The notes beneath the pieces were generated by a model. That model ran no database searches and was not told where the DNA came from. It was given only the letters and a program-made list of their open reading frames with translations. Position numbers and translations under genes: made by a program. 30,178 nt of DNA from the UHGV virus genome UHGV-0037346; one strand, given 5' to 3'. The stretch comes from a virus. Shown piece by piece: positions 5,162 to 26,786 of this stretch (positions are counted from its first letter, which is position 1; every line of letters begins with the position of its first letter).

Positions 5162-6352
5162 TTAATTGCTGTTAACCGAGGTGACCAGATTTGCCAGGTA
5201 TTTATCGGTAATACGCTGGCGCAGGGTCAGGTTTTCAAGAGGAGGCACCGGGGTATAGTCGTAGTCGATATACAGTTTTCCGGCCTTGAGGGTTTCCGCA
5301 TCGTTGGATTCTTCGCTGAACCAGCAGGTCGCATCCACGATATAGCCGTTTGTTTTCAGCTCACGGAATTTGGCATTGATGCCGTCAACGATGTCGCGAA
5401 TCAGCGTGGCGGTGATGGGCTTGTCCACCGCCCACATGTGCGCCTCAGCCATCGTGTCGGCCAGCACCTGCGCGGTGCGGGTGTAGTTTTCAAAGAGGAA
5501 CAGCGGGTCATCAGAGCAGGTACGGTTACCCCAGAAGCGGAAACCGTCACGGCGAATCAGCGTAGTGACGCCTGACTCGTTAAGCAGGTCAGCATCGGTG
5601 CCGGACTCCTGCAAATCCCAGAATACAGAGGCGCTGATGCCGGTAACACCGTTTACCCCGACGTTGGACAGCGTTTTATGCCAGCCCTGCTCCTGGTCGA
5701 TTTTAGCGCGCAGACCCAGCGCACGGGCGGTGGCATACGCGGTGGCGGTGGTACTGGTGACCGTATCCCATGCGAGGAAATCCGGCCAGATGACCATCAG
5801 CTCACGCTGGCTGAAATTCTGGCGGTAGGCTTTCACCTCGGAAATGGTTTTACAGCCCCATGCGCTGATATACCCGAAAGCGCGCAGCTTCTGACAGACG
5901 GATGCCAGTGCAACAGCCACCTCTTTGGTATCCAGTCCCGGCACACCGAGAATACGCGGTTTAACACCGGTTACCGACTCCGCCGCCAGCAGGGCTTTCA
6001 GTCCGGTGTACTGACCGTTTTCGTCAGTGGTGCCGATGATATTGGAAACGGTCTGCGCGAGTTTCGTTTCTTCGTCGTCGCCGGTTCCGTCTTCCACGCG
6101 CACGACAACGGTGACCGGTTTTGACTGGTCAGCGATGGCCTGCAACGATGCCGCCAGCGTGCCTTTTTTACCGGCCTTTGCAATCGCGCTCTGCACATTG
6201 GTGATCAGCACCGGTTTATTGACGGGGAAGGTTTCCGCATCCGCATCGCTGGCCGTGCAGACCATGCCAACAATGGCGGTGGATACGGTGGAAATGACGC
6301 GGGTGCCGTCGTTAATCTCCAGCACCTGCACGCCGTGATGATAGTCACTCAT
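5162..6352 (-). CDS. FI: Contractile tail sheath protein FI
   Basis: 396-aa ORF, ATG at 6352 preceded by GGAG; size and position match P2 gpFI. Confidence 0.9.
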   Translation of the reverse strand: MSDYHHGVQVLEINDGTRVISTVSTAIVGMVCTASDADAETFPVNKPVLITNVQSAIAKAGKKGTLAASLQAIADQSKPVTVVVRVEDGTGDDEETKLAQTVSNIIGTTDENGQYTGLKALLAAESVTGVKPRILGVPGLDTKEVAVALASVCQKLRAFGYISAWGCKTISEVKAYRQNFSQRELMVIWPDFLAWDTVTSTTATAYATARALGLRAKIDQEQGWHKTLSNVGVNGVTGISASVFWDLQESGTDADLLNESGVTTLIRRDGFRFWGNRTCSDDPLFLFENYTRTAQVLADTMAEAHMWAVDKPITATLIRDIVDGINAKFRELKTNGYIVDATCWFSEESNDAETLKAGKLYIDYDYTPVPPLENLTLRQRITDKYLANLVTSVNSN

Positions 6353-6411
6353 CCGTTTAACTCCGTGGTTAATGGGTGAGTGTTATTTTCAGTTGTGCCG
6401 GAGATGTCAGG

Positions 6412-7005
6412 CTATTTGTCCCGGTTGGTTAAGGGATGACACAATTTATTCTTTGTCGCTGATGAGGGGAATTTTTTATAGAGCGTGGACAGGCCAATAT
6501 CAAAAATCAGCGCCACACGTTGACGAGATTCCCCCGCAGCCAGCAACCGTCCGACCTGCTCCCACTCACTCGCGGTGAGTTTCGGACGTCTGCCACCAAT
6601 ACGACCTTTGGCTCTGGCCGCTTCCAGTCCGGCGCGTGTCCGCTCGACAATGAGTTCTCGTTCCATTTCAGCCAGGGCACCCATCACATGGAAGAAAAAA
6701 CGCCCCATCGGCGTGCTGGTATCAATAGCATCCGTCAGGCTGCGAAAATTAATGCCGCGTTCGCGCAGTTCCTCAACCAGAATGACCAGATGCCGCATAC
6801 TACGCCCCAGCCTGTCCAGCTTCCAGACAACCAGAGTGTCACCTTCCGATAATGTTCTGAGCAGTTTTTTCAGTCCCGGTCGGTCGGACTTAGTGCCGCT
6901 GATTTTATCCTCAAAAATCAGCTCACATCCTGCGCACTCCAGCGCGTTACGCTGCAATTCCGTGTTCTGGTCATTTGTTGACACGCGTACATAGCCAATA
7001 AGCAT
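6412..7005 (-). CDS. Serine recombinase, DNA invertase (Gin/Pin/Cin/Hin family)
   Basis: N-terminus MLIGYVRVSTNDQNTELQRNAL with catalytic Ser motif, resolvase core ...VVWKLDRLGRSM..., C-terminal HTH ...ALIFDIGLSTLYKK; second in-frame ATG (7005) gives the canonical invertase N-terminus; ORF track start is 7011. Confidence 0.9.
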   Translation of the reverse strand: MLIGYVRVSTNDQNTELQRNALECAGCELIFEDKISGTKSDRPGLKKLLRTLSEGDTLVVWKLDRLGRSMRHLVILVEELRERGINFRSLTDAIDTSTPMGRFFFHVMGALAEMERELIVERTRAGLEAARAKGRIGGRRPKLTASEWEQVGRLLAAGESRQRVALIFDIGLSTLYKKFPSSATKNKLCHPLTNRDK

Positions 7006-7224
7006 GAGCATCCCCCTGAATAAAAACCGGAGATGATGCCAGTTGCCCGTTATCTCTGCATTTTCTTAAACGTTGCTTTAAGATGGGCGTGGTCACCACC
7101 ACATCATCAAAGTGGAACGCGCTGGGAGCGTACCGCTGCAGAATGGGGCATCTCATTAAGCAGTTGATTACTTCCATTGCGAGTGATTCAATAGATATTG
7201 AAAATTCACCCGAAGAGAAAGAAA

Positions 7225-8370
7225 ATGCAAGGAAATAGAATTGACTTTGTCAATACTTTGAGAGGATTTGCAGCATTAGCCGTTGTTATTGCTCACTATA
7301 CTGGTAATTTTTGGTCAATGCGAACAGCAGTAGCAAGTCTTACAAATGCTCCTGAATTACCATCTGAAACATATGCTTGGCCTAGTTATCTTGTATGGCT
7401 CCATGCCTTCCCTTTGTTTAACTGGGGGGCTTTCGGCGTTGCTATATTTTTCATCATTAGCGGGTTTGTCATTCCACTCTCGCTACAAAAAATAACATTT
7501 CACGGTTTTTTATTAAGCAGAATCATTAGAATAATACCAACATATATTATTGGTTTTACTATAACGCTTACAGCCATATTGATAAGCAGTAAATATTTTT
7601 CAGTGGAATGGCCATTTAATAACAAAGAAATATTGATTCACTACATCCCTGGAATCAGAGACTTGTTGTACTCCAGGAGCATTGATGGAATCATTTGGAC
7701 ACTGGAGATAGAAATGAAGTTTTATCTCATTTGCGCTATATTAATAGCAGTATTTCGCAAGCACTCCATAAAAGTTTTCATTACCCCGCTTATTCTTTTT
7801 TTGTTTGCTCTCTATATTAACAAGGTTGCTCCTGAATGGATTAACTCCAATATATCAGCATTCCATCTTGCCATGGCATACATGTTTTTTTCTCAGTATA
7901 TTATTTATATGTTTATCGGAACCATGTTTTATTATATGTATTGTGGTTATATAAATGCCAACAAGGCTTATCTTGGAATCGGCATATTATTTACTTTATT
8001 CTGCATTCTTTGGTGGGCTGGTCCATATTCAGCCAGTATAAATGTCGCCTGGAGCTATGCATTTGCGCTTTTGGTCTTTGCTTTTGCTTATGCTCACCCA
8101 AAATTATTTAAATCCAATAGGTTTTTTGATTTTTTTGCCAACATAAGCTATCCGCTATATATTATCCACGGGGTAGCTGGGTATGTCGCCCTTCGAATTT
8201 TACTTGAAATGGGGTTTAAAGCATGGGTATCTCTCTTAATTGTGACTTTTTCCATTATATTTTCGTCATGGTTAATACACATCTTGATTGAATCCCCTTC
8301 TCAGAGAGCAGGCAAGCGCCTCGTAGCTAAACGAGGTAGGCCATTAAAAAAAACAGCGCAACCAACCTAA
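7225..8370 (+). CDS. Acyltransferase family 3 integral membrane protein (Oac/OafA-like; putative O-antigen acetyltransferase)
   Basis: N-terminal motif NRIDFVNTLRGFAALAVVIAHY typical of acyltransferase_3; ~10 hydrophobic segments; strongly AT-rich and rare-codon-biased compared with flanking phage genes; ATG at 7225 (ORF track start 7198 is TTG). Confidence 0.8.
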   Translation: MQGNRIDFVNTLRGFAALAVVIAHYTGNFWSMRTAVASLTNAPELPSETYAWPSYLVWLHAFPLFNWGAFGVAIFFIISGFVIPLSLQKITFHGFLLSRIIRIIPTYIIGFTITLTAILISSKYFSVEWPFNNKEILIHYIPGIRDLLYSRSIDGIIWTLEIEMKFYLICAILIAVFRKHSIKVFITPLILFLFALYINKVAPEWINSNISAFHLAMAYMFFSQYIIYMFIGTMFYYMYCGYINANKAYLGIGILFTLFCILWWAGPYSASINVAWSYAFALLVFAFAYAHPKLFKSNRFFDFFANISYPLYIIHGVAGYVALRILLEMGFKAWVSLLIVTFSIIFSSWLIHILIESPSQRAGKRLVAKRGRPLKKTAQPT

Positions 8371-8410
8371 TAGATCTTATCAAGTAAAGGCAGCTGCTCT
8401 TATTATACAA

Positions 8411-8437
8411 GAGGTGCACTTTCTTCGAGTGCACCTC
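8411..8437. terminator. Candidate bidirectional hairpin between convergent acyltransferase and tfa genes
   Basis: Perfect 9-bp inverted repeat GAGGTGCAC-(9 nt)-GTGCACCTC in the 127-bp convergent intergenic region; flanking U-tracts are weak. Confidence 0.4.
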
Positions 8438-8497
8438 CTCTGAAAAACAACTTTATAAAATTATTTTCATCGCCATATTATTCATTAATCACCCATC

Positions 8498-8890
8498 TTA
8501 CGGAATAATAGGCCAGCTAATCTCTGCATCAGTGTTAGCGTCAATCCTGCTCAGCAGCACACGGTATTGTTTCCACAGAGGCAACGTGGCGGATTCTGCA
8601 TCTGTAGCCATACCCAGATCGACGGCATCCTGTAGCACACCAATTTGCTGCGTTGCTTCATTCATCAGCGAATTTTTCATAGCGAAGTTATTGGTAATTC
8701 GCAGTTGTTTTGCTGCTGCTAATTCTTCATCGGTCGGAGTTGGCGCACTAAAAACGCCATTGACGTAATGCCAACCGATACCCATACCTTCAGTAGAGAG
8801 AATGGCGCTGGCTGATTCAGGCCATTCTGACTTGCCATCCCAGATAACAATATTTTCTACGATGCCATTTTTGATAATTGCATAGTTCAT
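8498..8890 (-). CDS. Tail fibre assembly protein (P2 gpG-like Tfa)
   Basis: 130-aa ORF directly downstream of tail fibre; C-terminal ...LPLWKQYRVLLSRIDANTDAEISWPIIP resembles the conserved Tfa C-terminus. Confidence 0.8.
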   Translation of the reverse strand: MNYAIIKNGIVENIVIWDGKSEWPESASAILSTEGMGIGWHYVNGVFSAPTPTDEELAAAKQLRITNNFAMKNSLMNEATQQIGVLQDAVDLGMATDAESATLPLWKQYRVLLSRIDANTDAEISWPIIP

Positions 8891-10404
8891 TTACGCATAC
8901 TCCATAACAATAACCACACCCGCAGAGCCATTACCGCCATTAACGTTTTGATTTCCACTGATTGTTGCCGCGCCATTACCACCCGCACCATACCCACCAG
9001 GGCCAGAAATAAAGCTGCCGCCGCCAAGACCGGAACCTACAGTCCCTCCGACTGCTGTTGGGGTTGCCATCACACCGGGTAGCCCGGCGTACCCGTTGCA
9101 CAAAATGGCACCCACGGTCGAAGTGCCACCCTGACCGCCCATGCCACATGACGCAGAGGAGCCTGACGCAGTGCAGCCGTTGCCTGGCTGGCCTCCACTT
9201 GCTGAGAGATAAGAGCCAAAAGTCGTCGTACCACCCTGCGTGCCATTGGTCATCGTCGAGGCAATACCGCCATTACCACCCGCACCAATCGTGACAAGCA
9301 CGGTTGATATTGCAGACAGGTTAAAGAGACCACGTGCCATTCCGCCGCCACCGCCACCACCACCCGCGGCGTTATAGTTTCCTGTGGAAGTTGCCCATCC
9401 GCCGCCCNNNNNNNNNNGTTATAGTTTACTGTGGAAGTTGCCCATCCGCCGCCCCCACCGCCCCCAATAGCGATGACATCCGCGAACATTGCTCCGGGAG
9501 TTTTGGTGTAAGTGCCAGACGTCTTGATTATCTGCATGCCAATCAGACGACCGACTGCGCCGTTATTTACTAAACCAAGGTATGCGAGAAGACCGGCAAC
9601 ATCCTTTCCACTCAAATGAGTCAGCGTATTGTCCAGCGGTTGTTTACCTGCCAGCGCATTGTTAATGGTGGTGCTGAATTTCGGGTCATTGTTAATGGCT
9701 GCGGCAATTTCTTTCAGTGTGTCCAGCGTGGCAGGCGCACCATTAATCAGAGCGGTAATAGCAGCCTGTACAAACGCAGTGGTCGCAATCCGCGTGGTGT
9801 TATTTCCTGCATCAGGAGTCGGCGCTTTTGGTTCTCCGGTAAATGTCGGATTATGTTTCTGTGCATACTGGGTATGAGGATCCTGTGCGGCAATGTGGTT
9901 TCTCATCTGGTCATCCACATACAGCCTTAATTCCAGGACTTCATCATCCACGTATTTACGGGTCGCCAGTACCACCGACGGGTCGATTTTCAGCGTGATG
10001 GCTTCGGTATTCGTGACAACCAGAATCATGCGGATAGTCTGGGTACGACCACTGCCTTCCTGCAACTGCGGTTTGTACGTTTCCGGGCAGTTCGCCACCG
10101 CAATGAGTACGCCTTCATCATCATAAAGCCCAATCTCACGGATCCAGAATCCGCCCTCGTTCTCAGGGATGATTTGCTCCGCAATAATCTGGCTCTGGTT
10201 GTTCGGGTCAACACTCAGAAGATTCAGCGGCGCGATGCGTTTCTGGTTAATCAGTTTTGTCTGTGCCGGGTCTGGTGTCGGCAAGACACCATTCGCATCA
10301 CCAACGGCCATTTGCGTCAGATTCAGCTTACTGCCGAGCATCGTCGCGTTAGCCAGCCGTGCTGCGCCCTGATTAGTCAGAATGGCGTAGTATTTCACTG
10401 TCAT
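8891..10404 (-). CDS. H: Tail fibre protein (P2 gpH-like), interrupted by assembly gap
   Basis: N-terminal ~150 aa resemble the P2 H N-terminal domain (…MAVGDANG…GGFWIREIGLYDDEGVLIAVAN…YKPQLQEGSGRTQ…); Gly-rich C-terminal part (8891-9340) joins in frame when read through the repeat downstream of the N-run; the reading frame on either side of the 10-N gap differs, so the true length is unknown. Confidence 0.7.
9408..9417. other. Assembly gap (10 N) inside tail fibre gene
   Basis: Run of n characters; flanked by a ~37-bp direct repeat (9371-9407 and 9418-9454, one mismatch). Confidence 0.95.
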
Positions 10405-19933: not shown

Positions 19934-20106
19934 TGTCAGGAGTCCTGAATAGTGATTAGAGGAGTCACATGTCGGCATCAGTTTCCCGACGATGCGCATC
20001 CTCCGCCATCAGTCCCGGATGGCTTATCACTGACACAACAGCACCTTAGCGAATCGCGGGGCGCGACTCAGTAGCCTTGCCGTGTATTCATCACGGCGAG
20101 GTATTC

Positions 20107-21879
20107 ATGACCATCACCACAGACACCACTCTTTTACACGACCCGCGTCGTCAGGCGGCGCTGCTGTACTGGCAGGGGTTTTCCGTGCCGCAGATTGCCG
20201 CCATGTTGCAGATGAAACGCCCGACGGTGCAGAGCTGGAAACAGCGCGACGGCTGGGACAGTGTTGCCCCCATCAGCCGTGTCGAAATGAGTCTGGAAGC
20301 GCGGCTGACCCAGCTCATCATCAAACCGCAGAAAACCGGCGGTGACTTCAAGGAAATTGACCTGCTCGGACGCCAGATTGAACGACTGGCACGGGTCAAC
20401 CGTTACAGTCAGACCGGCAACGAGGCAGACCTTAATCCGAACGTCGCTAACCGCAACAAAGGCGGGCGTCGCAAACCGAAAAAGAATTTTTTCAGCGACG
20501 AAGCCATCGAAAAGCTGGAGCAGATTTTCTTTGAGCAGTCTTTCGACTATCAGTTGCACTGGTATCGCGCCGGGCTTGAGCACCGCATCCGTGATATCCT
20601 GAAATCCCGCCAGATTGGCGCGACGTTTTATTTTTCCCGCGAGGCGCTGCTGCGTGCCCTGAAAACCGGTCATAACCAGATTTTTCTGTCGGCCAGTAAA
20701 ACGCAGGCGTATGTGTTCCGCGAATACATCATCGCCTTTGCCCGGCTGGTTGACGTTGACCTGACCGGTGACCCGATTGTCCTGGGCAATAACGGCGCAA
20801 AACTGATTTTTCTCGGCACCAACTCCAACACCGCGCAGAGCCATAACGGCGACCTGTACGTCGACGAGATTTTCTGGATCCCGAATTTTCAGGTACTGCG
20901 TAAGGTGGCATCAGGTATGGCCTCACAGAGTCACCTGCGCTCGACCTATTTCTCCACCCCGTCCACGCTGGCGCACGACGCCTACCCGTTCTGGTCGGGT
21001 GAACTGTTCAACCGGGGACGCGCCAGCGCCGCCGAACGCGTGGAAATCGACGTCAGCCATAACGCCCTTGCCGGTGGTCTTCTCTGTGCGGACGGCCAGT
21101 GGCGGCAGATTGTCACCATTGAGGACGCACTGAAAGGCGGCTGCACGCTGTTCGACATTGAGCAGCTCAAACGCGAAAACAGCGCCGACGATTTTAAAAA
21201 CCTGTTCATGTGTGAATTTGTTGACGACAAGGCGTCGGTGTTCCCGTTCGAGGAGCTGCAACGCTGCATGGTCGACACGCTGGAAGAATGGGAAGACTAT
21301 GCGCCGTTTGTCGCAAATCCGTTCGGCTCCCGCCCGGTCTGGATTGGTTACGACCCGTCACACCGTGGCGACAGCGCCGGATGCGTGGTGCTGGCACCGC
21401 CGGTGGTGGCCGGTGGCAAATTCAGAATACTTGAGCGTCACCAGTGGAAAGGCATGGACTTTGCCACCCAGGCGGAATCCATCCGCAAACTCACCGAAAA
21501 ATACAACGTCGAATACATCGGAATTGATGCCACCGGCCTCGGTGTCGGCGTGTTCCAGCTCGTGCGCTCGTTCTATCCCGCCGCGCGCGACATCCGCTAC
21601 ACGCCGGAAATGAAAACCGCAATGGTGCTCAAGGCAAAAGACGTCATCCGCCGTGGCTGTCTGGAATATGACGTCAGCGCCACCGACATCACCAGCTCGT
21701 TTATGGCTATCCGCAAGACCATGACCAGCAGCGGACGCAGCGCCACGTATGAGGCCAGCCGCAGCGAGGAAGCCAGCCACGCCGACCTCGCCTGGGCGAC
21801 CATGCACGCCCTGTTAAATGAGCCACTCACCGCCGGTATCAGCACCCCGCTGACATCCACCATTCTGGAGTTTTACTGA
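20107..21879 (+). CDS. P: Terminase large (ATPase) subunit P
   Basis: ATG at 20107 preceded by GAGG; 590 aa as in P2 gpP; divergent from O; ORF track start 20077 is TTG. Confidence 0.9.
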   Translation: MTITTDTTLLHDPRRQAALLYWQGFSVPQIAAMLQMKRPTVQSWKQRDGWDSVAPISRVEMSLEARLTQLIIKPQKTGGDFKEIDLLGRQIERLARVNRYSQTGNEADLNPNVANRNKGGRRKPKKNFFSDEAIEKLEQIFFEQSFDYQLHWYRAGLEHRIRDILKSRQIGATFYFSREALLRALKTGHNQIFLSASKTQAYVFREYIIAFARLVDVDLTGDPIVLGNNGAKLIFLGTNSNTAQSHNGDLYVDEIFWIPNFQVLRKVASGMASQSHLRSTYFSTPSTLAHDAYPFWSGELFNRGRASAAERVEIDVSHNALAGGLLCADGQWRQIVTIEDALKGGCTLFDIEQLKRENSADDFKNLFMCEFVDDKASVFPFEELQRCMVDTLEEWEDYAPFVANPFGSRPVWIGYDPSHRGDSAGCVVLAPPVVAGGKFRILERHQWKGMDFATQAESIRKLTEKYNVEYIGIDATGLGVGVFQLVRSFYPAARDIRYTPEMKTAMVLKAKDVIRRGCLEYDVSATDITSSFMAIRKTMTSSGRSATYEASRSEEASHADLAWATMHALLNEPLTAGISTPLTSTILEFY

Positions 21880-22913
21880 TGAACAAGAAAAAAGGGAAAA
21901 CACCGCAACCTGCGGCAAAAAAAATGACCGCCAGCGCCCCGAAAATGGAGGCATTCACCTTTGGTGAGCCGGTGCCGGTACTCGACCGCCGTGACATTCT
22001 GGATTACGTCGAGTGTATCAGTAACGGCAGATGGTATGAGCCACCGGTCAGCTTTACCGGTCTGGCAAAAAGCCTGCGTGCTGCCGTGCATCACAGCTCA
22101 CCGATTTACGTTAAACGCAATATTCTGGCCTCGACATTTATCCCGCATCCGTGGCTTTCCCAGCAGGATTTCAGCCGCTTTGTGCTGGATTTTCTGGTGT
22201 TCGGCAATGCGTTTCTGGAAAAGCGTTACAGCACCACCGGTAAGGTCATCAGACTGGAAACCTCACCGGCAAAATATACCCGCCGTGGCGTGGAGGAGGA
22301 TGTTTACTGGTGGGTGCCGTCCTTCAACGAGCCGACAGCCTTCGCGCCCGGTTCCGTGTTTCACCTGCTGGAGCCGGATATTAATCAGGAGCTGTACGGC
22401 CTGCCGGAATATCTCAGCGCCCTTAACTCTGCCTGGCTGAATGAGTCGGCCACGCTGTTCCGCCGCAAGTATTACGAAAATGGCGCTCATGCCGGATACA
22501 TCATGTACGTTACCGATGCCGTGCAGGATCGCAACGATATCGAAATGCTTCGCGAAAACATGGTGAAGTCGAAAGGCCGCAACAACTTTAAAAACCTGTT
22601 TCTCTATGCCCCGCAGGGGAAAGCCGACGGCATTAAAATTATCCCGCTCAGTGAAGTGGCGACGAAGGACGATTTTTTTAATATCAAAAAAGCCAGCGCC
22701 GCTGACCTGCTGGACGCACACCGCATCCCCTTTCAGTTGATGGGGGGCAAGCCGGAGAACGTCGGGTCGCTGGGTGATATTGAGAAAGTGGCAAAGGTCT
22801 TTGTCCGCAATGAGCTTATCCCGCTACAGGACAGGATCCGCGAGATAAACGGCTGGCTCGGTCAGGAGGTCATCCGCTTTAAAAACTACTCACTGGACAC
22901 TGACAACGGCTGA
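21879..22913 (+). CDS. Q: Portal protein Q
   Basis: 344-aa ORF, same size as P2 gpQ; start overlaps P stop; followed by terminator and cos. Confidence 0.9.
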   Translation: MNKKKGKTPQPAAKKMTASAPKMEAFTFGEPVPVLDRRDILDYVECISNGRWYEPPVSFTGLAKSLRAAVHHSSPIYVKRNILASTFIPHPWLSQQDFSRFVLDFLVFGNAFLEKRYSTTGKVIRLETSPAKYTRRGVEEDVYWWVPSFNEPTAFAPGSVFHLLEPDINQELYGLPEYLSALNSAWLNESATLFRRKYYENGAHAGYIMYVTDAVQDRNDIEMLRENMVKSKGRNNFKNLFLYAPQGKADGIKIIPLSEVATKDDFFNIKKASAADLLDAHRIPFQLMGGKPENVGSLGDIEKVAKVFVRNELIPLQDRIREINGWLGQEVIRFKNYSLDTDNG

Positions 22914-22918
22914 ACATC

Positions 22919-22940
22919 GCCGCCTGCGGGCGGCTTTTTT
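22919..22940 (+). terminator. Rho-independent terminator downstream of Q
   Basis: GCCGCC-TGCG-GGCGGC hairpin followed by TTTTTT. Confidence 0.65.
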
Positions 22941-23082
22941 ACACCCCGTCATCACGCCCTCACACGCTCACCACCGCACAAAACACCCCGCAGACACACC
23001 AACGCCTCAACGGGCAGACTAAGCGCCTTCACGACGCGCTCAGACGCTGAAAAAATAAAATCAGCACCACCGCCAGCGCGCA

Positions 23083-23101
23083 GTGCTTTCCCCGCCTCGC
23101 C
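23083..23101 (-). other. cos: cos cohesive-end site (P2 type)
   Basis: Reverse complement of 23083-23101 is GGCGAGGCGGGGAAAGCAC, which I recall as the 19-nt P2 cohesive end; located just beyond Q as in P2. Confidence 0.75.
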
Positions 23102-23316
23102 TGCCCGCTTTATGGGTCGGTTTTAATGCAGGTGCACGAATACACCGGAGGCGCGCCGGCACTGGTGGCGCTCAGACGCAACAGGGGAGGAAAACGCATG
23201 CAATTGAATGCATTTCTAGGCACACCTAAAAATGAAAAAATGTTATGACAATTAATCATTTTAAACACACTGATTAAGGGTAGAATTCTCCTAGTAAAAT
23301 CATAGAAAAACCGCTA

Positions 23317-24246
23317 TCAAACCAGGCTTTTGCCTTGCTTCATTTTTTTAGATGAGTCTAAAAATTTGAAATTATCATTAGATGAAAATATTCTTTCTGC
23401 GGTATGCCGAATGACTGAAGTATTGAAGACCGCAGCCTGCTCCTCATTACAACTGAATACACCCTCATGACCATCAAACTCGCCCGCCAAAAGAAGGTTT
23501 TTTGATACTGGGAACAAAACTAAAGTGTCTTTTACACCAAACCCGGGGGAATAAGGGCCTCGTGCTAATTCAGGATTAGTCCACATTAAGCAAACTGGGT
23601 TATCTGAAGTTATAAATGACCCTTGCCCATCAGATATGGTCATAAGTGACCAGTTGCGTTGATGCAACAACTTGGTGATAACAGGTACACATTTCATTTC
23701 CATATCTATCATGAACTCTCTGATTACATTGATTTCGAAATTATCCCCATCCACAAAATTTTTAATTTTTTCGTAAGCGAGATCATATGGCAAAGACTCA
23801 CCCATTTCTTTCTCATAAGCTAATTTGCAATCGTCCCAACGCTCAGCCGAACTAACTGAGGATTTCATGATAAACTTTGCTATTTGTTTCAATGGAGATG
23901 ATAAATGTTCTCGCTGAGCAGGCGTACGTATTGCCAATAAGGAAATAAACTCCAGAATAACATCTTTGGTTTCGCCTGAAAACTCGCCCCCCTCCTCAAG
24001 TTTTCTTAAATGAGTAGCGACACTGCCTTCAAACTCTGCAAGAGAACTCTCGAGATAGTTTGGGTCAACTCCATCCAATTCTAATCGGTTGAAATCTCTA
24101 ACCCCCCCGACATTGCGAGTATTACTCTCAAAGGTTTTGCGCTCCTTTAAATCTATTACAGTTAATTTTGATTTTTTCCCCCCATTACTTGTAAACCCTT
24201 TCAAATAACATTGGGATAAAAAATGATGATGCCTTGCAACACTCAT
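23317..24246 (-). CDS. Hypothetical protein, AT-rich cargo at the cos-A (tin/old-equivalent) locus; possible DUF4238-like
   Basis: ~310 aa from ATG 24246 (GGAG 7 nt upstream); N-terminal HHHFLSQCYLKGF and later …FITSDNP… motifs; clearly AT-rich; no TM segments seen. Confidence 0.55.
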   Translation of the reverse strand: MSVARHHHFLSQCYLKGFTSNGGKKSKLTVIDLKERKTFESNTRNVGGVRDFNRLELDGVDPNYLESSLAEFEGSVATHLRKLEEGGEFSGETKDVILEFISLLAIRTPAQREHLSSPLKQIAKFIMKSSVSSAERWDDCKLAYEKEMGESLPYDLAYEKIKNFVDGDNFEINVIREFMIDMEMKCVPVITKLLHQRNWSLMTISDGQGSFITSDNPVCLMWTNPELARGPYSPGFGVKDTLVLFPVSKNLLLAGEFDGHEGVFSCNEEQAAVFNTSVIRHTAERIFSSNDNFKFLDSSKKMKQGKSLV

Positions 24247-24349
24247 ACTCAGCTCCGTTATGGCTATAATCGCATAAATAATAAGCACTTATATTGCAAT
24301 CATCTAGTTAAATACACAATATTTATGACTCCGAAATTTCATTAAATCA

Positions 24350-26521
24350 CTATTGATAGGTTTTACCAATTAGTGCCAGCTCGAAATGGATGCGTGGAAT
24401 CTGCGAACGTTCAGCCTTTGTCATCCGCCCTGATGGCGCTATCTGGTACGGTTTTAATGGTTCGCAGTTTCTTTGTTGCCAATTCGGTCTCGGTGCACCA
24501 TGTTTTAATGCACTCCTGAGCACCGTCACAACTTCCGGGTCATCCCATCCGATAACACCACTATCAACCAGATTTAACACCGCTGCGGCATGCTCAGACG
24601 GTGTAGGGTGCATAACCGGAACGTCACCGCCGGTGAACTTTCCACAGTTATTGACAGGACTCCGAGGCGCGGCGATGCCGCTTTTTAAAGTCAAAGGCTC
24701 AACGACCGGCACTTTCGGAACAATGCGCCAGTCCGTCGTTCTGGTGATATGAATATGACGCGCGCCGAGATGCGGCGCGTAAATGCCGACCACTCTCTCG
24801 ACTTCTTCCTCGTACTCGTTAACTTCATCCGACGGACTACGGGCAACCCTGACAGTCTGACAATCGCGCGGAACATTTGCCCCACCCTGCGCGCTGATAT
24901 ACAACGCAAAATCACCACTGTCTGCGGCGGCGCGTGCAGCCTCGACGCGTTCGTCAAACTCATCAGCAATGCTGACGCCGCGAGGCAATTTGCGTAGTTC
25001 ACGGTAAGCCCCCATTGTCGGCAGGCCAACCGTTTTAAATTGCGGAATGCGCCACGTTGACGCCCATGCGGTAACAGCCGCGGCAGTGTCTTTCAGCGGC
25101 CTGCCGGTATCGTTATCGAGCTGACCATCCAGTGCATAGCCATCGATGTTTTTTGAGATGTATTTCGCGATATATCCCGCAGCACCGCCCCGGTTAAGGT
25201 GTTTTGCCTGAAAACGGTTTCGCGCGGCTCCTCTTTCGTCACCATCCTCTTTGAGCGCATAGCGACGCATGATTTCGATAATCTGGTTACGCTGGCGTGG
25301 ATTACAAAAAAGCATCATATGCCAGTGCGGCGTTCCGTCGTGGTGTGGCTCGACGACTCGCAAACCGTAGACCTGTAAATCATTATCCTTGAATGCCGTG
25401 CGCATCAGGCTCCAGATGCGGCAGAGATAACGCTGCGCATCCTTTGGATTAAATGCCTCATCATTCCAGCCGTGATTTAGCTGGACGGTTTTACTTTCGC
25501 CTTTTCCGACCTGACGTGTCGGGTGATACTTTGACGGCGCGGTCAGAGTGATAAACATCCCCACATCACCCTCTGCGGCGGCGTAACGCTCAATACCGGC
25601 GATGGTGTTCATCAGCTCCATCCGGCGAATTTCAGGATTAGAAATACTGCCCATCACCTTACTGATAAGGTCGATGCGCTCGCCGGTTTCCCTGTTTTCG
25701 AGGTCACACGATTTAAGAAATTCCAGATTTGCCTGGCGGCGTGCACGCACATCACGAATGGCATGTTTACTGGCATAAGGAGAACGGTCTTTATTGACCT
25801 CCCCGACAGCAATCAGTAACGCCTCATGCCAGCGCATACGCTGGCCTTTAAGCTGATGAGTCCACCACTCATCGTTAAACAGACGGGCAATGGCAGAATA
25901 TGCCTGCCTCGTGGTCATCTGTCCTTTACGGTATTTTTTCCAGTAGAGAGGGGAAATATTGAAAGCACGTGCAGCGCCAGCAACATGACCATACAGATGC
26001 GCCTGCGCCTCATCTGTAAACAGCGATTCTTTCTCGCCATGTGCATCAACCCATGCATCGCAGAGTTCCTCATACATCATGAAAAGCTGCGATGAGATAC
26101 GGGCGGCAAACTTTTTCAGCTCCTTGTCATTCATCCCCGGCAGACGCGCATAATGGTCACGCTCTGCCAGAAACAGCAACGACGCGTCGGTGTTCATTTC
26201 ATGGCGCTGATTCACGCGCTCAATACGCGGCCATAAACGGCGCTGAAAAGTGGATGTGAGGAAATAAAACCCGTGCACCGGGCTTTTATTGCGCCGGATG
26301 TAGTCATAGCGTGAAGTAAACAGCGAGCGCAAAAAGTAAGGCAGGCGATTAATCGTGGATAAAACACCTTGCACCTGACGCATCTCGTCACGTGTAAGGG
26401 GTCTTTCGCGCCCGACGGCCTCGCGTGGCGCGTTCCATGCATAAGCACCGGTAAACGTCTCACCGGTGCCTGCGGCAAATGCTGACGGAGGGACAAAACG
26501 CCCGGAGGCTTTAACGGCCAT
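24350..26521 (-). CDS. A: Replication initiation endonuclease A (rolling-circle, P2 gpA family)
   Basis: Contains GYIAKYISKN tandem-tyrosine active-site motif; N-terminus MAVKASGRFVPPSAFAAGTG…; start taken at ATG 26521 (upstream in-frame TTG at 26563 also possible). Confidence 0.85.
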   Translation of the reverse strand: MAVKASGRFVPPSAFAAGTGETFTGAYAWNAPREAVGRERPLTRDEMRQVQGVLSTINRLPYFLRSLFTSRYDYIRRNKSPVHGFYFLTSTFQRRLWPRIERVNQRHEMNTDASLLFLAERDHYARLPGMNDKELKKFAARISSQLFMMYEELCDAWVDAHGEKESLFTDEAQAHLYGHVAGAARAFNISPLYWKKYRKGQMTTRQAYSAIARLFNDEWWTHQLKGQRMRWHEALLIAVGEVNKDRSPYASKHAIRDVRARRQANLEFLKSCDLENRETGERIDLISKVMGSISNPEIRRMELMNTIAGIERYAAAEGDVGMFITLTAPSKYHPTRQVGKGESKTVQLNHGWNDEAFNPKDAQRYLCRIWSLMRTAFKDNDLQVYGLRVVEPHHDGTPHWHMMLFCNPRQRNQIIEIMRRYALKEDGDERGAARNRFQAKHLNRGGAAGYIAKYISKNIDGYALDGQLDNDTGRPLKDTAAAVTAWASTWRIPQFKTVGLPTMGAYRELRKLPRGVSIADEFDERVEAARAAADSGDFALYISAQGGANVPRDCQTVRVARSPSDEVNEYEEEVERVVGIYAPHLGARHIHITRTTDWRIVPKVPVVEPLTLKSGIAAPRSPVNNCGKFTGGDVPVMHPTPSEHAAAVLNLVDSGVIGWDDPEVVTVLRSALKHGAPRPNWQQRNCEPLKPYQIAPSGRMTKAERSQIPRIHFELALIGKTYQ

Positions 26522-26786
26522 ATGAGCCAAAAGCCTCTGAACAACGCTTGCTGAGTTGCTCAACCTGCGCGTTTAAATCAGCAAAAGACTTTGCGCTTCC
26601 GGTCAGAATATCGTGATGCATCAGGCCGGAAACAAGCTGGCTTAATTTCGGGTAATAACCAACCACCGCCAGCCATTCCTGACCGGCGTTTTTACCGCTT
26701 TCAGCTCTCTTTTTCTCGTGGAGAATAAACTGAAAGCTGTCACTGGTAACGACATAACGTTCGCCAATTTCAATACGAATACTCAT
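26511..26786 (-). CDS. Small early-operon protein (P2 orf83 position)
   Basis: 91-aa ORF, ATG start overlapping upstream stop; no recognisable motif. Confidence 0.5.
   Translation of the reverse strand: MSIRIEIGERYVVTSDSFQFILHEKKRAESGKNAGQEWLAVVGYYPKLSQLVSGLMHHDILTGSAKSFADLNAQVEQLSKRCSEAFGSYGR

Follow-up and report, generated by a model that had tools for sequence, protein, structure and literature searches.

Between its portal and replication genes, the window (the whole 30,178-nt stretch of virus genome UHGV-0037346 that was analysed) carries a single minus-strand gene of the DUF4238 family, set in AT-rich DNA beside a P2-type cos site. The features of this locus, in window coordinates, are:

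20077-21879, plus strand: terminase P, the large terminase (PHROG search)
21879-22913, plus strand: portal gene Q, conserved anchor across the site from gene A (phrog_68, 586 bits)
22919-22934: terminator-like hairpin following portal gene Q (terminator scan)
23083-23101, minus strand: P2-type cos 19-mer GGCGAGGCGGGGAAAGCAC, bounding the hotspot on one side (exact match; chance expectation 0)
23213-23316, minus strand: AT-rich end of the cargo, 3' of the stop codon (end of the cos-side homology; Rfam null)
23317-24246, minus strand: DUF4238 coding sequence, 309 aa plus stop (open reading frame, PF14022, PADLOC, RefSeq identity, dN/dS)
24253-24256, minus strand: Shine-Dalgarno sequence GGAG, 6 nt 5' of the ATG at 24246 (read from the sequence)
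24247-24349, minus strand: AT-rich spacer (29% GC, 103 bp) from the gene A stop to the DUF4238 start, presumed regulatory region (GC content, consensus scan)
24350-26563, minus strand: replication gene A, a replication endonuclease nicking at the origin and a conserved anchor (phrog_91, 1077 bits)

We take the 19-mer GGCGAGGCGGGGAAAGCAC to be the P2 cohesive end. Its reverse complement is also present in the P2 reference fragment (NC_001895). Gene A bears the label 'replication endonuclease' in RefSeq, where the start chosen gives a protein of 723 aa. On the cos side, homology to other P2-like phages stops at query positions 335-413, corresponding to window positions 23134-23212, and the foreign AT-rich cargo therefore spans approximately 23213-24349, about 1.1 kb containing one gene. 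This gene lies between gene A and portal gene Q, beside cos, in DNA that is variable among P2-like prophages. With both anchors and the cos 19-mer located, the position that an earlier note on this DNA had equated with that of P2 tin and old is indeed the gpA-gpQ variable hotspot. The tin and old genes of P2 share this locus (gene A to cos) and the same role, namely the prophage-encoded exclusion of competing phages. Tin targets the single-strand-binding protein of T-even phages, and Old is an ATPase/Toprim nuclease. The window protein has no sequence relationship to Tin (best BLASTP E=0.37 over 32 residues), and the ATPase/Toprim domain of Old was not found in it by Pfam.

The earlier note had also proposed comparing the locus across P2-like prophages, and in this comparison a query consisting of the flanks and the gene matched 1682 of 5426 complete Escherichia coli genomes, of which 14 alone hold the cargo of the window. 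These 14 copies share at least 99.8% nucleotide identity, occur in unrelated genomes, and all lie between genes labelled 'replication endonuclease' and 'phage portal protein'. Escherichia phage pro483 is the only one of 50,697 phage records to carry the window gene; the protein, WP_001515549.1, is identical to ORF11 of that phage.

The open reading frame list gives the gene as 23317..24288 on the minus strand, with a GTG start and 323 aa. In biological terms the ATG at 24246-24244 is the sensible start and yields a protein of 309 aa encoded at 23317-24246 (-), and the RefSeq coding sequence in identical DNA is exactly 930 nt (309 aa) from the ATG at 24246. GC content is 0.391 over the coding sequence, 0.358 at its third codon positions and 0.291 in the 24247-24349 spacer, compared with 0.522 for the whole window, 0.530 for gene A and 0.534 for portal gene Q. 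These values bear out the earlier reading of one ORF of ~310 aa between cos and gene A in sharply AT-rich DNA (39% GC against 52% for the window) with its own ribosome-binding site (GGAG at 24256-24253, 6 nt before the ATG). Both motifs quoted in that reading are in place, HHHFLSQCYLKGF at residues 6-18 and FITSDNP at residues 211-217. The plausible promoter that it had placed in the 24247-24349 spacer fared less well, as a scan of this spacer for the sigma-70 consensus returned zero matches of 9/12 or better and a best match of 8/12. The computed properties of the protein are those of a soluble, mildly acidic polypeptide of ~35 kDa (pI 6.0, maximum 19-residue hydropathy 1.09). Downstream of the stop codon, the tail at 23213-23316 holds no credible gene or known RNA, and the small ORFs there overlap the cos region. 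A 40-aa ORF at 23126-23248 (+), between cos and the DUF4238 stop, overlaps the cos flank and corresponds to 'hypothetical protein ORF12' of pro483; its support consists solely of the open frame, and it is probably not a gene. No Rfam match and no tRNA gene were found in the whole window, and a repeat and structure search returned nothing meaningful.

The family assignment is unambiguous, and it places the gene well outside what a chance open frame would give. Pfam PF14022 (DUF4238), the only Pfam domain in the protein, matches residues 7-291 on profile positions 2-280 of 281 (E=4.2e-39, 135.1 bits against a cut-off of 27), and the PADLOC model 'DUF4238-Pers' aligns over its entire length (protein 1-309 on profile 1-309 of 309, E=1.5e-219, 725.5 bits). 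We take the system behind this PADLOC model to be the one that DefenseFinder names Rst_DUF4238. The DUF4238 model was the sole defence-model match to the window protein in the PADLOC library, NCBIfam contained no model for it, and its PHROG family is one of no known function. The earlier guess of a DUF4238-type protein was therefore right, on the strength of both the Pfam hit and the full-length PADLOC hit, and the family to which the profile searches assign the protein is a defence family, not a characterised non-defence one.

A profile built from 53 homologues was searched against 1.84 billion proteins (E <=0.001) and retrieved at least 7821 cluster representatives (50% identity) spread over many bacterial phyla. 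The best 150 of these 7821 are nearly all single-domain proteins of 300-350 aa, mostly ~310. All 53 aligned homologues match PF14022, and a second Pfam domain appeared among them as scattered noise only. The same picture of a solitary gene is obtained from the neighbourhoods. When all ORFs within 3.5 kb of the homologues were clustered at 38 species-level genome loci, no neighbour family recurred in more than three of the 38, the one found in three loci being an unrelated response regulator, and neither TIR nor any other conserved partner gene was found around these 38 homologues. We also checked by hand seven annotated contexts of homologues that are 44-84% identical to the window protein: a serine-recombinase island with type I restriction-modification and GmrSD, a Vibrio prophage where the gene sits beside a KAP NTPase, a Pseudomonas island with AAA_13, HNH and T5orf172 genes, two E. 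coli contexts in a phage-like element with an integrase and the YafO toxin, a Citrobacter site beside a putative AbiC gene, and an unrelated chromosomal site. The seven have no neighbour in common, and the majority lie among mobile-element or defence genes. In the window, the gene is flanked by gene A and cos, and by nothing else. The DUF4238 system is thus genuinely single-gene and moves between mobile elements.

The E. coli homologues of 47-54% identity (at 8001-8900 and 6001-6915 of their loci) occupy a variable slot in a large phage-like element with CobT, a DNA ligase, an integrase and YafO; the version with the gene at 8001-8900 additionally has a DnaB-type helicase. The two versions of this element differ around the DUF4238 gene, which suggests another hotspot.

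A phenotype for this family has been published. Rousset and colleagues cloned several cargo systems of the hotspot under their native promoters on a pSC101 plasmid, among them a DUF4238 gene from the gpA-gpQ hotspot of a P2-like prophage in E. coli TA007 (Rousset et al., 2022; Cell Host Microbe 30:740, PMC9122126). The resulting low-copy plasmid, pFR101, conferred 'strong resistance against T7' on MG1655, with the native promoter driving expression; the protection was narrow (T7 only, among eight phages), the anti-T7 data are plaque assays, and the active clone holds a single gene, whose protein is given in Table S2A (PMC9122126). WP_001515549.1, the window protein itself, appears as hotspot cargo in Table S5A of the same study (PMC9122126). 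Aligned with the TA007 protein that was tested, the window protein is identical at 284 of 309 positions (92%) and 98% similar, without gaps. The two alleles have in common the Pfam family, the length of 309 aa, the gpA-gpQ hotspot, the ribosome-binding site, part of the upstream sequence and the single-gene organisation. The sequence TAACGGAGCTGAGTATG at the ribosome-binding site is also found in the cloned, active TA007 fragment, and the block TCATAAATATTGTGTATTTAACTAGATGATT is common to the spacer and the TA007 upstream sequence.

The proposal in the earlier note of a single-gene phage-defence function is well supported by these data: the gene belongs to the DUF4238 family, its 92%-identical TA007 orthologue blocks T7, and there is no partner gene. 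Its description as 'uncharacterised' has to be dropped, since publication of the phenotype dates from 2021/2022, the PADLOC library has a model for the family and the exact accession stands in the hotspot table of Rousset and colleagues. In sequence and in context, the gene has every feature by which Rst_DUF4238 / PADLOC DUF4238 is recognised, and the phenotype is supplied by proxy through the 92%-identical orthologue. We thus consider it very probable that the window gene is the Rst_DUF4238 / DUF4238-Pers anti-phage system, present as exchangeable cargo of the gpA-gpQ hotspot next to cos in a pro483-type P2-like E. coli prophage.

How such a protein might act was approached through its structure and its conserved positions. 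AlphaFold2, run on the 53-sequence alignment, returned a confident model (mean pLDDT 89.1, pTM 0.86) that opens with an N-terminal motif segment and beta-hairpin (residues 7-42), followed by a conserved loop (43-63), an insert of six helices (64-195) and a C-terminal beta-rich domain (198-304) that starts just before the FITSDNP motif. The structure prediction and fold search suggested by the earlier note thus succeeded in the first part; in the second, the fold search found no solved structure resembling the model, and against viral models the match was DUF4238 again. This sole Foldseek match (E=3.8e-10) is gp44 of Stenotrophomonas phage Smp131 (30939-31835), also annotated as DUF4238, which is ~13% identical to the window protein and lies in an accessory region of a Peduoviridae genome. 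There it stands beside an integrase and a gene for an SOS-response-associated peptidase, whereas the window gene stands beside gene A. In a profile-profile comparison with the Smp131 subfamily, the alignment was confined to the 22-residue segment with F-I-x-S-D-x-P; inspected by eye, that subfamily also starts with an HHF motif. The presence of this protein in another Peduoviridae genome indicates that DUF4238 cargo recurs in the accessory regions of P2-like phages of unrelated hosts.

Nine residues (H7, H8, Q12, N45, D51, E66, E183, R197 and N275) are invariant down to ~30% identity, and D32, R50, N53, E73, R112, T213 and D215 are conserved in at least 85% of the sequences. Walker A and PD-(D/E)xK motifs were sought by eye, and neither fits the conserved positions. 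With no solved structure related to the fold, no chemistry can be assigned to the protein. We found no mechanistic study of DUF4238 in the literature, and a 2024 survey places Rst_DUF4238 among the systems that 'could not be classified'.

Tentatively, and with the alternatives below in mind, we propose that the DUF4238 protein could combine sensor and effector in one soluble enzyme. Its active or ligand site might be formed by the His-His motif (H7, H8, Q12), the loop with R50, D51 and N53, the glutamates E66, E73 and E183, R197, and the S-D-N-P loop (D215). Infection by a T7-type phage would supply a specific protein or nucleic-acid cue upon which the protein would act, and the outcome would be either the destruction of a phage-essential substrate or the arrest of the infected cell (abortive infection). 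The proposal of an enzyme with its own sensing leans on the alignment: the same residues are kept in Enterobacteria, Pseudomonas and Verrucomicrobiota, unlike what would be expected of a surface that chases fast-evolving phage proteins, and this may point to catalysis. These invariant polar residues could equally serve to bind a phage protein or a small-molecule signal.

The most serious competitor to this enzymatic proposal, although we regard it as rather unlikely, keeps the gene and its defence role and makes the protein non-enzymatic: it would either poison a T7-specific protein as a stoichiometric binder or decoy, in the manner of P2 Tin, or be a pure sensor that recruits a host effector. 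The narrowness of the published phenotype (T7 only among eight phages) would suit such a protein, as would the lack of a recognisable catalytic fold. A further point in its favour comes from a TIR defence system of E. coli in which a DUF4238 domain is present and the TIR catalytic (NADase) residues are essential (Nat Commun 2024, PMC11350192); DUF4238 could be the sensing part there. That system shares with the window gene the DUF4238 domain and an anti-phage role in E. coli, but it depends on the TIR NADase, whereas the window gene has neither a TIR domain nor a TIR neighbour. Since the TIR catalytic residues are needed, DUF4238 may in some relatives be only the sensor or signal receiver and not the effector. 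For the subfamily of the window gene, however, no TIR or recurrent partner gene is found alongside, and there is no sequence similarity to Tin. Many charged and polar residues are moreover invariant to ~30% identity from Enterobacteria to Verrucomicrobiota, hosts with differing phages, although one would expect a surface in contact with a fast-evolving phage protein to be variable and not the most conserved part of the molecule. We thus retain the self-contained enzyme as the preferred, still tentative, reading.

A bolder form of this reading would make DUF4238 the founder of a structurally new class of self-contained anti-phage proteins, with a two-lobed fold (helical bundle and beta domain), a His-His/Asp/Glu/Arg site performing chemistry unseen in bacterial immunity, and residues 87-301 setting the phage cue, so that the window allele could differ in range. 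We consider this conceivable but doubtful.

A difference between the alleles can also be envisaged independently of the mechanism. The phenotype is that of the TA007 allele, and the window allele departs from it by 25 substitutions and by shorter, partly different upstream DNA; it might act in defence with a different phage range, or be weaker or silent in its native context. All 25 differences fall within residues 87-301, residues 1-86 being identical, ~130 bp of upstream DNA in the TA007 clone are missing from the window, the last ~40 nt before the ribosome-binding site differ, and the spacer has no sigma-70 match of 9/12 or better. We nonetheless judge this alternative unlikely. The alignment comparison shows that none of the 25 differences touches an invariant position, and 98% of positions are conservative. 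The gene is moreover under strong purifying selection: comparison with an 84%-identical homologue found in a different context gives a dN/dS of 0.075, with 0.027 over residues 1-86, and the first 66 codons differ from the TA007 allele by 14 synonymous and 0 non-synonymous changes. The near-identity of the copies in the 14 unrelated E. coli genomes argues in the same direction, as does an intact copy of 98% amino-acid identity in Kluyvera intermedia (NZ_JAKCNS010000008.1, locus coordinates 6001-6927). From the sequences compared, a changed phage range of the window allele is thus possible, and not indicated.

The Kluyvera copy is also informative by its surroundings. Its locus (5347-10328) contains a 1.59-kb block that is 97% identical to window positions 23076-24663, comprising cos, the DUF4238 gene and the 314 bp that end gene A. 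Over the portal region the identity is 73% and long ORFs are absent, and close by on both sides are the host genes for an ABC transporter, YegS and a peptidase U32. The locus looks like a decayed P2-like prophage, and the remnant appears to have kept its defence cargo only. Retention of the DUF4238 cargo while the phage around it decays fits a host-benefiting function. Beyond cos, the product of an ORF at 7278-8945 of this locus (555 aa) combines AAA_21 and DUF4435 domains, the pairing that characterises the PARIS defence system.

The reading of the gene as a non-defence moron (lysogenic conversion or prophage maintenance), or as a toxin with an unannotated small-gene or RNA antitoxin in the AT-rich flanks, could appeal to the non-defence cargo of this hotspot, which includes partition systems and cytolethal distending toxin (PMC9122126), but it is very improbable, being largely refuted by the direct anti-T7 phenotype of the 92%-identical orthologue, for which a single gene sufficed in the published clone, and finding no conserved neighbour or small ORF, Rfam match, or notable repeat or structure in its support.

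The prophage carries further cargo away from the hotspot. At 7198-8370 (+), an AT-rich gene (33-39% GC), opposite in strand to the surrounding tail genes, encodes a 390-aa membrane acyltransferase (Acyl_transf_3, Pfam E=7e-23) without a PADLOC match. It is probably a lysogenic-conversion moron for the acetylation of surface polysaccharide, and its position is presumably the Z/fun-type variable position of P2. Genes at 6412-7011 (-) and 8498-9340 (-) place a serine recombinase/invertase (Resolvase and HTH_7, E=3e-52) beside tail-fibre-assembly genes (Caudo_TAP), an arrangement suggestive of a Hin/Cin/Gin-type inversion that switches tail fibres, and with them host range, in this P2-like prophage.

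Taken as an annotation, the DUF4238 gene of the window is a catalogued defence gene in its canonical location, phenotypically validated through a 92%-identical orthologue and, its mechanism aside, already known. For genome annotation little is gained, as PADLOC, DefenseFinder and Pfam already call the gene and its phenotype class is published, and the window allele does not render the mechanism of DUF4238 newly testable. What the window adds is a second natural allele, a set of invariant residues as targets for mutagenesis, and evidence that purifying selection is strong, for a system that is among the few validated defence systems listed by reviews as unclassifiable and that belongs to a widespread family with an apparently new fold.
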